The notes: generated from the sequence alone by a model not told the origin. A stretch of DNA of 16,208 nt from a virus (IMGVR_UViG_2778261227_000006); one strand, 5' to 3'. Shown: positions 9,129 to 14,763, numbered from the stretch's first letter. A program made the numbers and translations.

Positions 9129-9302
9129 TCAGATTAAATTAATCTTGACATCATAGCTTTCAAGACCCGTCATTTTTTCCCGTGCGGTAAACTGAATACT
9201 GGTAACTTCTTTCCCGGTCTTTTTCTTAAGTTCAATAATTTTTTTTGTTATATATTCAGAAATATCTGCTTCTGCTTTTGTTTTTAAGTTTTCAATATTC
9301 AT
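9129..9302 (-). CDS. gnsB: GnsA/GnsB family protein (57 aa; not in ORF track because under 60 aa)
   Basis: Manual translation of minus strand: (M)MNIENLKTKAEADISEYITKKIIELKKKTGKEVTSIQFTAREKMTGLESYDVKINLI, closely resembling GnsA/GnsB as recalled; tandem ATGs at 9305 and 9302. Confidence 0.7.
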   Translation of the reverse strand: MNIENLKTKAEADISEYITKKIIELKKKTGKEVTSIQFTAREKMTGLESYDVKINLI

Positions 9303-9473
9303 CATTTCCTCTTTTAGTCTGTTATGACTTTCCAGTTACACAGTAAGTCGATTATATGGTGCAAACGTGTAAAAGATAAGATGAAACATCGCAATAATCA
9401 ACATACGATAGTCTAAATTTTACACAAACAGACAAAGAAAATTTTCCTGAATTATCAATACAATAGCATCAAA

Positions 9474-9704
9474 TCAACTCAAGAGCCTTATTGCTGCTTC
9501 CAGAATTTCTTCTGAAGTAACATGTCGATCCGCGGCTACATAAATGACTTTATGATCTCCGGTCAGAGATGGAAACCCTGCGGCCATTACAGTAAGGTGT
9601 GTTTTTTCGCCATTTGGATATTCACGCATGATGGTGTTAACTCCAGTCATCGCTGGCACTACCACTGCAGGTTCAGAGTTAAAAAAAACTATGATTTTTT
9701 TCAT
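9474..9704 (-). CDS. ynfN: Hypothetical small protein in the position of ynfN (76 aa from ATG 9704; a 51-aa product would start at ATG 9629)
   Basis: ORF MKKIIVFFNSEPAVVVPAMTGVNTIMREYPNGEKTHLTVMAAGFPSLTGDHKVIYVAADRHVTSEEILEAAIRLLS; non-repetitive; sits between cspI and gnsB as ynfN does in Qin; no clear SD at either start, so the start is uncertain and the symbol is positional. Confidence 0.5.
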   Translation of the reverse strand: MKKIIVFFNSEPAVVVPAMTGVNTIMREYPNGEKTHLTVMAAGFPSLTGDHKVIYVAADRHVTSEEILEAAIRLLS

Positions 9705-9746
9705 GATGTTACCGTAGTATGTGAGTATCCATCGAATAGATACCAA

Positions 9747-9770
9747 GCAAAAAAGCTCCCGAAGGAGCCT
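9747..9770 (-). terminator. Rho-independent terminator (UUCG tetraloop hairpin + U6)
   Basis: Minus strand: GGCUCC-UUCG-GGAGC followed by UUUUUU (plus 9748-9769); lies downstream of cspI and upstream of the ynfN-like ORF. Confidence 0.6.
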
Positions 9771-9975
9771 TCATTTTCACTTTTTTAAATCCAACGACAG
9801 ACGGCTGGCATTTAAGTATTGTGAAATATTATCAAATGTAATCATCATTGATTTACAAAAGATACATTTTGCCCCGAAAGGATTCATGTCAGAAACATCA
9901 AAAGATGATGTTCTATACTGGGAACCATGACAACACGGGCATCTAAAGTGAATATGGTTTGTAATATTGTCTACC

Positions 9976-10188
9976 TCAAAGCGCCACTACATGAACAGCG
10001 GCAGGACCTTTAGGTCCGTTCTCAATATCAAATTCAACTTCCTGATTCTCAGTTAATGTTTTGAAATCGTTGCTCTGAATTGCTGAGAAATGGACAAACA
10101 CATCTTTGCTGCCATCTTTCGGCGTGATGAAACCAAAACCTTTTTCAGGGTTAAACCATTTCACTAAACCAGTCATTTTGTTAGACAT
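9976..10188 (-). CDS. cspI: Cold-shock protein, CspA family (70 aa, CspI-like)
   Basis: [70 protein letters not shown] with the KGFGFI and VFVHF RNP motifs; ATG at 10188..10186; long AT-rich 5' leader upstream. Confidence 0.9.
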
Positions 10189-10551
10189 AATTATTACCTT
10201 TTGAAGAAATTAGCCCTTGGGCAGAATGGTCCGAAAAAAAATATCAGAGAGAAAAACCAACAAGGAAATCTCAAGAGGTACAAATAATAAAATTATAACA
10301 ATGACTGCTTCAGATAAATTTGTAACAAACCAGAACACCATTAACGCATGATTAACCACCCATAGCAAGGATTACTTTTGTAAAGAAAAACACAGCAATG
10401 AAAGAATAGCTTTATTTATTAATAATAACGTGTCATTCTGATTAAGACCTTTTATCTTACCCTTAAGATTTCAGGAATTTTGGCTCATGGAAGAGTCCTT
10501 TTTATTTAAATTTTACATTCCGCGATGTAAATGTTCCGATTTAATATTACC

Positions 10552-11891: not shown

Positions 11892-12107
11892 TTACTCTCC
11901 TCTCGCAGCCTTACGCCTGTCTTCTTTAATCTTGAAATAAAGATTTGTCAGATACGTCAGCAGGCCAAAAACCAGGCTACCCAGCACACCGATTGCAGCC
12001 CACTGTGACGGAGTTACTTTATCGAGTAACTGCAATGCCCAGAAACCAGCATTACCCGCCGATGTGCCATAGGCAACACCTGTTGTTAACTTATCCATTG
12101 ATTTCAT
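11892..12107 (-). CDS. essQ: Class II holin / pinholin (S21-like, 71 aa) with dual-start motif
   Basis: [71 protein letters not shown]: two TM segments, charged C-terminus, Met1-Lys-Ser-Met4 dual start (ATGs at 12107 and 12098); track ORF start at 12182 rejected. Confidence 0.88.
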
Positions 12108-12326
12108 ATCCTCACCCCGATGTACACGGATGGTGCAATATGTTTGAAAAGATCGGAGTCTACGGGGTAGTTTTGACAGCACACGTTGTTCTCAACGGCG
12201 CTAAAAAAACATACACATTAAAAATGTGGGTAATTATTTTGAAAGAAAGTCATATATAAAATAATAATACGAGAAATGTTTTCATATTTAGTGTACTGTA
12301 TACGGCCATTTATACAGGAAAAGCCT

Positions 12327-12497
12327 ATGTCAGAACGTAAAAACTCAAAATCACGCCGTAATTATCTCGTTAAATGTTCCTGCCCAAACTGCACCCAAGA
12401 GTCAGAACACAGTTTTTCAAGAGTACAAAAAGGTGCCCTTTTGATCTGCCCTCATTGCAACAAAGTATTCCAGACAAATCTTAAAGATGTAGCCTGA
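12327..12497 (+). CDS. Small zinc-ribbon-like protein (56 aa), antisense to the late operon
   Basis: ATG 12327 preceded by AGGA SD (ACAGGAAAAGCCTATG); MSERKNSKSRRNYLVKCSCPNCTQESEHSFSRVQKGALLICPHCNKVFQTNLKDVA with two CxxC pairs 20 residues apart; TGA at 12495-12497; hairpin/terminator about 60 nt downstream. Confidence 0.5.
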   Translation: MSERKNSKSRRNYLVKCSCPNCTQESEHSFSRVQKGALLICPHCNKVFQTNLKDVA

Positions 12498-12556
12498 TTG
12501 ATTTTATTAGTAACAAGTATTTTTTATATTTTAATAATATATTTAAAGCAGATAAT

Positions 12557-12580
12557 AAAAAACCCGCCTGAGCGGGTTTG
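12557..12580 (-). terminator. Rho-independent terminator (strongest on the minus strand; possibly bidirectional)
   Basis: Stem AAACCCGC/GCGGGTTT (12560-12567 / 12572-12579), loop CTGA; on the minus strand the hairpin is followed by UUUUUU-AUUAU. Confidence 0.6.
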
Positions 12581-12860
12581 AGATTGTGGTGCTTTTTGTG
12601 GGAGTCATCCACTTACGCACTTTGTTTTGCCATGCCAGCAGTTAGCTTCTGCTGTAAAACTATTCATGCAGCAAACCTGCACTTCACCACAATGGTTAGC
12701 ATACTTTTCCTGATTAAGATTTTGCCAAATATGCTAGCCATTGTTTCATGTATTGGACCTCCTTACTTTTTATTAAAGAGATCCAATATTCACTACTCTG
12801 TCCGTATCTCTACTCAGGCATCAGCCTTCTTCGTTATCGTATACAGACGAGCGATGAATT

Positions 12861-13076
12861 TTAATCAGTAATGATGACATTTGCTGCTGCAGGACCTTTA
12901 GCACCACTCTCTATAGAGAAGGTAACCTTTTGACCTTCAAATAAGGTTCGATAATTATCATTCTGAATCGCAGAAAAATGCACAAACACATCTTTACTAC
13001 CATCAACAGGAGAAATAAAGCCGAAACCTTTATCAGCGTTAAACCATTTTACTAAACCAGTCATTTTATTTGACAT
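12861..13076 (-). CDS. cspB: Cold-shock protein, CspA family (71 aa, CspB-like)
   Basis: [71 protein letters not shown]; ATG at 13076..13074; TAA at 12861-12863. Confidence 0.9.
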
Positions 13077-13376
13077 TCTACATTCCTTAACTTGAGCCTT
13101 TCGGCATAAATGGTTTGCATAACAGAAACGACTTCGTACTTAATTGGAGAGACTCAAAGAAGGAATAAGTGAATAACACCTGAAATGAGAACTGCTTTAG
13201 TAAACTACTTCGTATATCGTCTGTTCTTCAAACCGACGCAATCATTAACGCATAGTTGAACATATGAAGCAATGTTTATTTTAGACATCCAGCCATCTTC
13301 AACCCCATCAAAAAACTATAGCTTTCTTCAGGAACGTGTGTATAGTGCGCCAAGTTATCAGTATTAAGGAATTTTT

Positions 13377-13589
13377 TTGTCCCGTAAAATGACAGGAATT
13401 GTCAAAACCTTTGACGGCAAAAGCGGCAAGGGTCTTATCACCCCATCCGATGGTCGTATCGATGTCCAGCTTCATGTCTCAGCGCTCAATCTCCGCGATG
13501 CAGAAGAAATTACCACCGGATTACGCGTGGAATTTTGCCGGATAAATGGTCTGCGTGGCCCTTCAGCTGCCAATGTTTACCTTTCATGA
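13377..13589 (+). CDS. cspF: Cold-shock-domain protein (70 aa, CspF/CspH-like), TTG start
   Basis: (M)[69 protein letters not shown]; AAGGA SD at 13366-13370 sits 6 nt before TTG 13377; divergent from cspB. Confidence 0.85.
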
Positions 13590-13643
13590 GCTATATTAAA
13601 GCTTTAATTTCAGGCCCCATCGGATCACACATGGAGAGTTTTT

Positions 13644-13733
13644 ATGAATAACCCCGTCTGTCTTGATGACTGGTTGATTGGCTTTAAAAGCTTATGCTGT
13701 ACTTTGGCCGTAATAGCTCTGCTAATAATATAA
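13644..13733 (+). CDS. Candidate 29-aa hydrophobic mini-protein downstream of cspF
   Basis: GGAGAG SD (13633-13638), 5-nt spacer, ATG 13644; [29 protein letters not shown] then TAA (13731-13733); single predicted TM helix; terminator hairpin follows at 13882. Confidence 0.35.
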
Positions 13734-13881
13734 TAAGCAGACTCATTGTGTTTAGGGACATTGTACTGGAAGAAAACATTTTAAACATCAGGCAAATAAC
13801 CAAGTCACCAGCTAAATAATAAGTTAACAGACATGAGTCCCGGGATGAGATTCAACATTACCATTGCCCCATTTAAAGCAC

Positions 13882-13917
13882 AAAACCCGCTCATCAGCGG
13901 GTTTTCTACTTTTTCTT
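13882..13917 (+). terminator. Rho-independent terminator (plus strand, cspF transcript); possible tR'-like hairpin on minus
   Basis: Stem AAAACCCGC/GCGGGTTTT (13882-13890 / 13897-13905), loop TCATCA, then CTACTTTTTCTT on plus; on minus the same hairpin is followed by UUUUGUGCUUU. Confidence 0.55.
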
Positions 13918-13950
13918 AACGTCGGGTATACAAAGCCCATCGTTGAAAAA

Positions 13951-13978
13951 ATTTTATCCATATTTTTTGAAAAATGCA
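13951..13978 (-). promoter_or_regulatory. Candidate late promoter (pR'-like) just downstream of Q
   Basis: Minus strand TTGCAT (-35; plus 13973-13978), 16-nt spacer, TAAAAT (-10; plus 13951-13956), about 30 nt after the Q stop codon and about 45 nt before the hairpin. Confidence 0.4.
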
Positions 13979-14010
13979 AACATCATGTCGCCATCTTCAG
14001 CAAAAATCAT

Positions 14011-14763
14011 TTATCTCGTCACCTTCCTCAATTGCGCTTCCGCGTATGCTTCTTCCTGCCAGCACTTTGTTACCAGTTTACCAATGACGTCCGCATACCC
14101 CTTATACCACTGATAATCGGTCAGGTCTGGTACCAGCTTCTGGACATGACGTCGTGCCAGCGTGGTCGGTAAACGACTAAACCGGTTTCCATTACAACGC
14201 CCACAAATCTTATATACCGGTACGCCATGAAACCGGGTTCTTTTTTCATCCAGAACAATCCCTTTACCCTTACACCCTCTGCACGCTGTGCTGGCTTCGC
14301 CCTTACCATGGCAATGCTGACATAGTTCCTTCACCCATTCTTCCTTGATTACAGATTCCCCGCGTCTGTAGTGTTTCACCACTTCGCGCAATACATTATA
14401 AAATCCCGTACCTGAACAATGCTCACAGCGAGCCTTACTTGCCGCAGACCTGGAGTAATCAGCAAAGGCAAAACTCACGAGGTAAGGAATAATCTGTAAC
14501 CGGATTTCTTCACTCAATTTGTTCAATGTCGGGTTATCCAGTGCCATCGCGTAATTTAGCAGGCCTTCAATCGCAAACTGAGGGTCCTGAACACCAACTT
14601 TTGCCAGAAATAAGGCCAACCCAAGTGGTGCTTTCGACTGCACCATCCCCTGCGCTGCCATTACATCCGTAATTGTTAAACAACCGGTGCCTGTCGCTGG
14701 AGCGTCATCGCTCAATTTTGGAGATTTTGGGGAGTAATATTTTGGTAAGGCTTCAAGGTTCAT
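14011..14763 (-). CDS. quuQ: Late-gene antiterminator Q (250 aa, Qin/phage-21-type)
   Basis: MNLEALPKYYSPKSPKLSDDAPATGTGCLTITDVMAAQG... with C-terminal Cys/His cluster (CEHCSGTG, CQHCHGKG, CRGCKGKG, CGRCNGN); ATG at 14763..14761; track start at 14793 rejected. Confidence 0.85.
   Translation of the reverse strand: MNLEALPKYYSPKSPKLSDDAPATGTGCLTITDVMAAQGMVQSKAPLGLALFLAKVGVQDPQFAIEGLLNYAMALDNPTLNKLSEEIRLQIIPYLVSFAFADYSRSAASKARCEHCSGTGFYNVLREVVKHYRRGESVIKEEWVKELCQHCHGKGEASTACRGCKGKGIVLDEKRTRFHGVPVYKICGRCNGNRFSRLPTTLARRHVQKLVPDLTDYQWYKGYADVIGKLVTKCWQEEAYAEAQLRKVTR

Follow-up and report, generated by a model that had tools for sequence, protein, structure and literature searches.

How is late transcription arranged in a prophage in which the antiterminator gene Q and the holin gene are held apart by a run of cargo genes? 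The question is raised by IMGVR_UViG_2778261227_000006, a stretch of 16,208 nucleotides (nt; hereafter the window) from the Qin prophage of Escherichia coli, in which the Q-to-holin interval occupies 12108–14010, i.e., 1,903 base pairs (bp). This interval is very probably a lambda-type late-gene regulatory cassette, with a late promoter (PR'), a pause element and an intrinsic terminator (tR'), followed by a block of morons, or cargo genes. The initial annotation had set the Q stop at 14011 and the holin start at 12107, about 1.9 kb apart, had placed cspF, cspB, a zinc-ribbon open reading frame (ORF) and mini-ORFs between them, and had seen a pR'/tR'-like pair next to Q. The observation is confirmed, with the zinc-ribbon ORF corresponding to ynfU (PF23499) and the mini-ORF adjoining cspF to ynfS (PF23697). 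The interpretation is supported by the family of the Q protein, by the homology of promoter and pause element to their lambda counterparts, by a minus-strand RNA 3' end in K-12 and by the occurrence of the same module ahead of methylase, tRNA and Shiga toxin (stx2) genes in other phages.

The late promoter and its antiterminator

The holin-to-Q stretch of 2.9 kb has 100% identity with its counterpart in many strains, E. coli IAI1 among them, and 99.9% with that of K-12 MG1655. In PhiR42_1, a deposited phage genome, the identity over Q and on through the lysis genes is 99.9%. Gene contents were taken from the IAI1 and K-12 annotation, and positions in the window convert to K-12 coordinates by an offset of +1,628,478, which was set from ynfS and confirmed against NC_000913.3. 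The annotated order on the minus strand of the window is ydfU, ydfT (quuQ), cspB, essQ (essD in some records), ydfR, rrrQ and rzpQ, with ynfS, cspF and ynfU on the opposite strand; the window, unlike K-12, has in addition retained genes for terminase, portal, protease and capsid. The first late gene is essQ (11892–12107, minus strand, with its ATG at 12107), which codes for a holin of the phage 21 S family (PF04971, E 4.4e-34). The late genes are co-oriented with PR', and their order and orientation fit a Q-dependent lysis/morphogenesis operon.

The product of quuQ/ydfT (14011–14763, minus strand; annotated ATG at 14763, TAA stop at 14013–14011) is an intact protein of 250 amino acids (aa) that matches PF03589 (E 3.6e-54, 181 bits against a cutoff of 26.7), recovers the lambda Q structures 7UBM (E 4.6e-36) and 7UBN from the PDB and aligns with lambda Q end to end over residues 1–250 at 33% identity. 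By its sequence, then, QuuQ is a member of the lambda-Q family; assignment to the phage-82 or phage-21 type of Q is ruled out by the Pfam, PDB and pairwise comparisons alike.

Downstream of quuQ lies a minus-strand promoter layout consisting of a -35 element TTGCAT (13974–13979), which aligns by position with lambda TTGACT, a 17-nt spacer TTTTCAAAAAATATGGA (13957–13973), a -10 element TAAAAT (13951–13956) read from the sequence and from an alignment of six sequences, a 6-nt discriminator, and then AACGATGGG at +1 to +9. The last of these (13936–13944), which comprises the sigma70-dependent pause element AACGAT plus GGG, is base-for-base identical to that of lambda PR', and TCAACGATGGG occurs only once within the window. 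The lambda promoter was read from NC_001416 and aligned with those of P22, mEp460, a Stx2c phage and PhiR42_1 together with Qin; from 13974 to 13937, 26 of the 38 positions are invariant across these six. The spacer is homologous to the lambda and P22 region where lambda Q binds, with the pattern T.TT.AA.AAA..TGG common to Qin, lambda and P22, and homology to the PR' of lambda and P22, whose geometry is identical, extends over everything from -35 to +9. In lambda, the Q site lies between the -35 and -10 elements. The P22 record, for its part, annotates P-late, a qut-like site, a probable late-RNA 5' end and t-late at matching positions, and its annotated +1 is the first A of AACGATGG, homologous to 13944 in the window. 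Transcription would thus be expected to start at 13944 (K-12 1642422, minus strand), 67 nt past the Q stop. The promoter TTGCAT-16-TAAAAT that the initial annotation had placed just after Q at 13951–13978 therefore holds as a promoter candidate by virtue of its homology to lambda and P22, with two amendments: the spacer is 17 rather than 16 nt, and the -35 element reaches one base further, to 13979.

The layout is not confined to Qin. When genomes were scanned with QuuQ, 17 loci were recovered from Escherichia, Shigella, Mangrovibacter, Kosakonia, Phytobacter, Atlantibacter, Buttiauxella, Scandinavium and Entomohabitans, and these, together with phages including lambda and P22, furnished a comparison set of 18 distinct Q-family loci with Q identities down to 33%. 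In 17 of the 18, the promoter and pause-element layout is kept, with AACGAT, AATGAT or AAAGAT as the hexamer. An intrinsic terminator whose sequence varies between lineages follows about 30–75 nt past the pause element in these loci, with the exception of lambda, whose tR' is further downstream, outside the examined stretch. Records that hold the 141-bp Qin cassette at an identity of at least 99% number 1,246, and among 5,426 complete genomes, 1,628 have it. One further contig, of 22.9 kb (JAGZPX010000007.1, L011) and labelled as part of a Veillonella parvula metagenome-assembled genome, has a Q region 99% identical to that of Qin and is most likely an Escherichia contaminant introduced in binning.

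A separate observation concerns the Q protein itself. The zinc-ribbon arm of lambda Q contacts DNA and sigma region 4. Relative to lambda Q, QuuQ carries a 48-aa insertion in this arm (residues about 120–175) with two extra CxxCxGxG motifs of the DnaJ type (PF00684, E 1.3e-8), which suggests an arm binding two zincs; the promoter geometry is the same as in lambda despite the insertion.

The tR' hairpin and the leader RNA

The second component of the cassette is a hairpin at 13882–13905, which lies at +40 to +63 relative to the putative start and forms a 10-bp stem, AAAACCCGCU-GAUG-AGCGGGUUUU. Its position is that of the annotated late terminator of P22, and relatives, mEp460 and the Stx2c phage among them, have homologues of it. 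Both this hairpin and another at 12579–12560 fold far better than shuffled sequences, and terminator-like sites in the region number 6 against an expectation of 2.3 ± 1.6. Direct evidence for an RNA end at this site comes from K-12, where the Term-seq table has 1642356 as a minus-strand 3' end, classed as "orphan", in 3/3 growth conditions (supplementary file 1 of Adams et al. 2021, PMC7815308). This end corresponds to position 13878 of the window, with an RNA ending in ...GCGGGUUUUGUGC-3'. Taken with the probable start at 13944, it yields a predicted PR' leader RNA of 67 nt (13878–13944, minus strand), which folds at -30.4 kcal/mol (z -6.1) and would be the counterpart of lambda 6S RNA and of the StxS precursor. 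The same Term-seq table has no plus-strand 3' end at the hairpin; its listed minimum read counts differ about 25-fold between the strands, and it thus affords no comparison of strength across them. As for the file itself, its legend gives 40 bp upstream and 10 bp downstream, whereas the strings actually comprise 61 nt, of which the 51st is the 3' end.

The hairpin is bidirectional in its placement: on the minus strand it closes the predicted PR' leader, and on the plus strand it faces cspF-ynfS. The initial annotation had described it as a GC hairpin with a U-tract that looked stronger on the plus strand. The hairpin is real, though its minus-strand U-tract is short, and while a consensus scan indeed calls a terminator there on the plus strand only, the 3' end seen in vivo in K-12 is that of the minus strand.

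A comparison with the known systems places these elements in context. With the lambda Q/PR'/qut/tR' system (PF03589; 7UBM/7UBN), Qin shares the Q family, a promoter 67–78 nt past the Q stop, the 17-nt spacer, the 6-nt discriminator, the identical AACGATGGG at +1 to +9, and the succession of an intrinsic terminator and downstream lysis genes. It differs from lambda in the position of tR' (about +40 to +67 against +194), in its weaker -35 element, in the arm insertion of QuuQ and in a Q-S gap of 1,903 bp as opposed to 676 bp. The gene 23/P-late/t-late system of P22 shares the pause element, and its leader is likewise short, with a terminator of the same geometry (+31 to +59), but it has no cargo, the gap between genes 23 and 13 being 434 bp. 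Qin couples a Q cassette of the lambda type to a short leader resembling that of P22, set in the cargo slot of the Stx phages.

As with lambda 6S RNA and StxS, which are short PR'-tR' transcripts of lysogens, K-12, which does not induce the prophage, yields a detectable short RNA with its end at tR'; unlike them, the Qin RNA is predicted to be 67 nt, as against 194 nt for the lambda RNA and 258 nt processed to 74 nt for StxS. The features of the StxS type are a stable short PR'-tR' RNA, Hfq binding and targets in trans (PMC7547250), and the Qin leader has an A-rich AAGAAAAAG stretch alongside the terminator hairpin, which was noted in connection with such a role. The leader might further begin with a hairpin of its own (13918–13944, minus strand; +1 to +27), AACG-A-UGGG ... 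CCCG-A-CGUU, whose 3' half is complementary to the pause element and which folds in 15 of 17 related leaders, those of lambda and P22 included. Across 14 Qin-clade sequences, 96% of the cells at its paired positions are compatible with pairing against 27–43% with a slid partner; in the same 14 sequences, the changes are one-sided and wobble-compatible with no double compensatory change, and the shuffle control is not significant. A scan of IMG/VR added little diversity, with pair-breaking variants among the sequences found. The conservation of this hairpin is hence suggestive, and any role it has may lie, for example, in protecting the long late mRNA or in helping the Q-loaded complex. That the 67-nt leader is a trans-acting small RNA similar to StxS, or that its 5' hairpin is a working part of lambda-type late leaders, appears unlikely on balance.

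Exchange of the cargo block and the weighing of alternatives

The region beyond tR' is an exchangeable block (12120–13881) with a GC content of 34–46% as against 45–54% in its flanks. From ydfU through Q, PR' and tR', blastn finds about 90% identity with mEp460 and Stx2c_EH0430, and in both the homology breaks at the same base, 13882, which is the last stem base of the tR' hairpin; the identity with mEp460 picks up again at 12119, at a distance of 12 nt from the holin ATG. In mEp460, the slot holds two hypothetical genes and a DNA methylase, and in Stx2c_EH0430, it holds two ORFs, an N6/N4 methylase, tRNA-Met(CAT), tRNA-Arg(TCT) and the A and B subunits of Shiga toxin (stx2A/B), while more distant relatives have tRNAs soon after tR' or further downstream. 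The proposal that other lambdoid phages carry toxin or tRNA cargo at this very site is thereby vindicated. The Qin block is itself modular: relative to Qin, E. ruysiae is without 13837–13580, such that ynfS and the last bases of cspF are gone (L010, 5928/5929), and Escherichia sp. E1V33 is without both 13866–13315, i.e., cspF and ynfS, and 12779–12693 (L012, 5887–5898 and 6418–6424). A short repeat, ATGGGG, is present in Qin at both edges of the segment missing in E1V33 (13873–13866 and about 13320). The location of stx between Q/PR' and the lysis cassette, and the occurrence in late regions of morons with their own promoters, terminators and composition, have been reviewed (PMC8065619). The Qin block has the marks of such morons in being swapped between conserved flanks, in its distinct composition, in the 5' untranslated region (UTR) of cspB and in the separate 3' ends of cspB and ynfU.

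Where Qin parts company with mEp460 and the Stx phage is in the orientation of its cargo. All the cargo genes examined in those phages face in the late direction and are co-transcribed, whereas three of the four annotated cargo genes of Qin are opposed to it, with their own promoters and ends. These are ynfS (13644–13733, plus strand; a 29-aa protein, PF23697), cspF (13377–13589, plus strand) and ynfU (12327–12497, plus strand; a 56-aa zinc-ribbon protein, PF23499 E 3.5e-31), all antisense to late transcription. The only annotated cargo gene in the late direction is cspB (12845–13237 with its cspA-type 5' UTR, RF01766, 158.8 bits; coding sequence 13076–12861, minus strand), which diverges from cspF out of a common intergenic region. 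Two convergent pairs result, namely the PR' leader against cspF-ynfS at the tR' hairpin and cspB against ynfU at a second hairpin (12560–12579; 8 bp, with a U6 tail on the minus strand). The initial annotation had all the cargo downstream of the Q-modified start, which is true of its position; of the four genes, cspB alone could be co-expressed from PR'. The same annotation had a strong minus-strand terminator at 12557–12580: the hairpin and its U6 tail are there, and the 3' end recorded in K-12 is that of the plus strand only.

Following the lambda paradigm (PMC9388147, which reports the QBE structure of lambda Q, and PMC7547250), the cassette could be expected to work as follows. In the lysogen, sigma70 RNA polymerase would start constitutively at PR' with its +1 at about 13944 and would pause as sigma70 re-binds the -10-like AACGAT at +1 to +6; if Q is absent, it would terminate at the tR' hairpin with a 3' end at 13878, releasing the 67-nt RNA. 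Once made, QuuQ would bind the promoter spacer and load, with NusA, onto the paused polymerase, rendering it resistant to terminators. Such a polymerase would read through tR', the cargo of about 1.8 kb (antisense to ynfS, cspF and ynfU and sense to cspB) and the 12579–12560 hairpin, and would reach essQ-ydfR-rrrQ-rzpQ and then the head genes, with the cargo genes presumably using promoters of their own. The shared hairpins might then act as insulators that stop cold-shock and cargo transcription from reaching Q and the lysis genes, and would be ignored by the Q-modified polymerase.

Several observations weigh against this account. Promoter-like sites in the region number 10 as against 7.1 ± 2.9 in shuffles, so consensus alone does not rise above chance, and PR' scores 9/12 against the consensus with a weak -35 element (3–4 of 6); the PR' call is convincing on account of its homology to lambda and P22 PR' rather than its match to the consensus, and it is as a sigma70 promoter homologous to these by position that it is identified from the sequence. 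The supplements of the Cappable-seq, SMRT-Cappable-seq and RNET-seq studies, whose tables are possibly incomplete, have no 5' end at these coordinates. The minus-strand tail of tR', UUUUGUGC, is short, with one to three U fewer than in the relatives, and this is the reason why the consensus scan flags the hairpin only on the plus strand. At 12579–12560, Term-seq of K-12 has no minus-strand 3' end, the only end there being on the plus strand at 12582, on the ynfU side. Finally, the literature search on quuQ and ydfT found no experiment on QuuQ activity, nor did the search extended to essQ and PhiR42_1 find a paper specifically on the Qin late promoter.

Some of these points lend themselves to other explanations. 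The 13882–13905 hairpin might essentially be the terminator of cspF-ynfS, with the minus-strand 3' end deriving from read-through transcripts of quuQ; its plus-strand tail, UUUUCUACUUUUUC, passes the terminator rule that the minus-strand tail fails, and Term-seq gives 3' ends alone, with no start site found in the supplements searched. Yet mEp460 and the Stx2c phage, in which the DNA beyond tR' is not homologous to the Qin cargo, have this hairpin equally far from the pause element, and it is kept in Escherichia sp. E1V33, which lacks cspF-ynfS. Furthermore, no plus-strand 3' end is listed there despite the lower listing threshold of that strand. As a replacement for the PR' leader terminator, this explanation is improbable, and the two roles are in any case not exclusive. 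It is somewhat more doubtful still that a decayed cryptic prophage has left the cassette behind as an inactive relic, with a resemblance that has outlived its function. The Qin of K-12 is indeed defective, and the weak -35 element, the shortened U-tract of tR' and the silence of the literature searched on QuuQ activity might be read in this way; against this stand the intact Q ORF, the near-identity of the 141-bp cassette in the many records and genomes counted above, the terminase, portal, protease and capsid genes of the window, the agreement of PhiR42_1 from Q to the lysis genes and the detection in vivo of an RNA 3' end at tR'.

A further alternative would take the cargo out of the late operon altogether by giving the lysis genes a promoter of their own immediately ahead of the holin, for which promoter-like hexamers at 12260–12233 (minus strand) might be enlisted. 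The window, however, has no second pause element or Q-site-like motif, promoter-like sites are not enriched, and the homology with mEp460 restarts no earlier than 12 nt ahead of the holin ATG, so that no conserved promoter is left in this place; moreover, the genes in this slot of the Stx phages are under PR' control (PMC8065619). A second late promoter near the holin was accordingly rejected, and we regard it as hardly credible.

The cassette reading that emerges from this comparison describes a textbook arrangement, already known in kind, and no new system; what is new is the annotation, i.e., PR', the pause element, tR' and a cause for one orphan 3' end. Although no bacterial genome is better annotated than that of K-12, its reference record is devoid of promoter, terminator and RNA features at PR'-tR', and an unannotated late promoter, pause element and terminator can now be placed in that genome, with the orphan end at 1642356 (minus strand) accounted for by them. 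The exchange boundaries of the Q-S cargo slot are likewise defined, as the foot of tR' and a point 12 nt before the holin ATG. Beyond annotation, the importance of these results is small, though the Qin cassette could serve, in K-12, as a harmless model for the control of toxin cargo by this type of Q, because the same slot carries stx2 in related phages.

Neighbouring features of the cargo

The best promoter-like site of the region (12239–12268, plus strand) lies ahead of ynfU. In K-12, the cspB RNA ends mainly at 12748/12746, where Term-seq has very abundant 3' ends, 3–5 nt past the 15-bp stem (12788–12751) of a hairpin in its 3' UTR (12746–12788, minus strand). This hairpin, 113 nt past the cspB stop, sequesters a perfect Shine-Dalgarno sequence, UAAGGAGGU, ahead of an 11-codon ORF, MKQWLAYLAKS (12749–12714).

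At the gathering threshold, the only Rfam matches are two cspA thermoregulators, that of cspB and a second one (9949–10334, minus strand; 112.6 bits) that marks cspI. Relaxing the threshold to E <= 1 adds only weak matches of the leader and isrK type, which were judged generic. Among them, isrK (RF01394) at 13880–13946 reaches 16.6 bits against a threshold of 50 (E 0.95), which falls short of membership; a similar weak match at the other terminator suggests that it merely reflects a hairpin followed by a terminator. As for cspI, its companions are ynfQ, ynfR, ynfN and gnsB; the group (9129–10400) is flanked by the lysis genes on one side and the small terminase subunit on the other, and gives Qin a second slot for cold-shock cargo.

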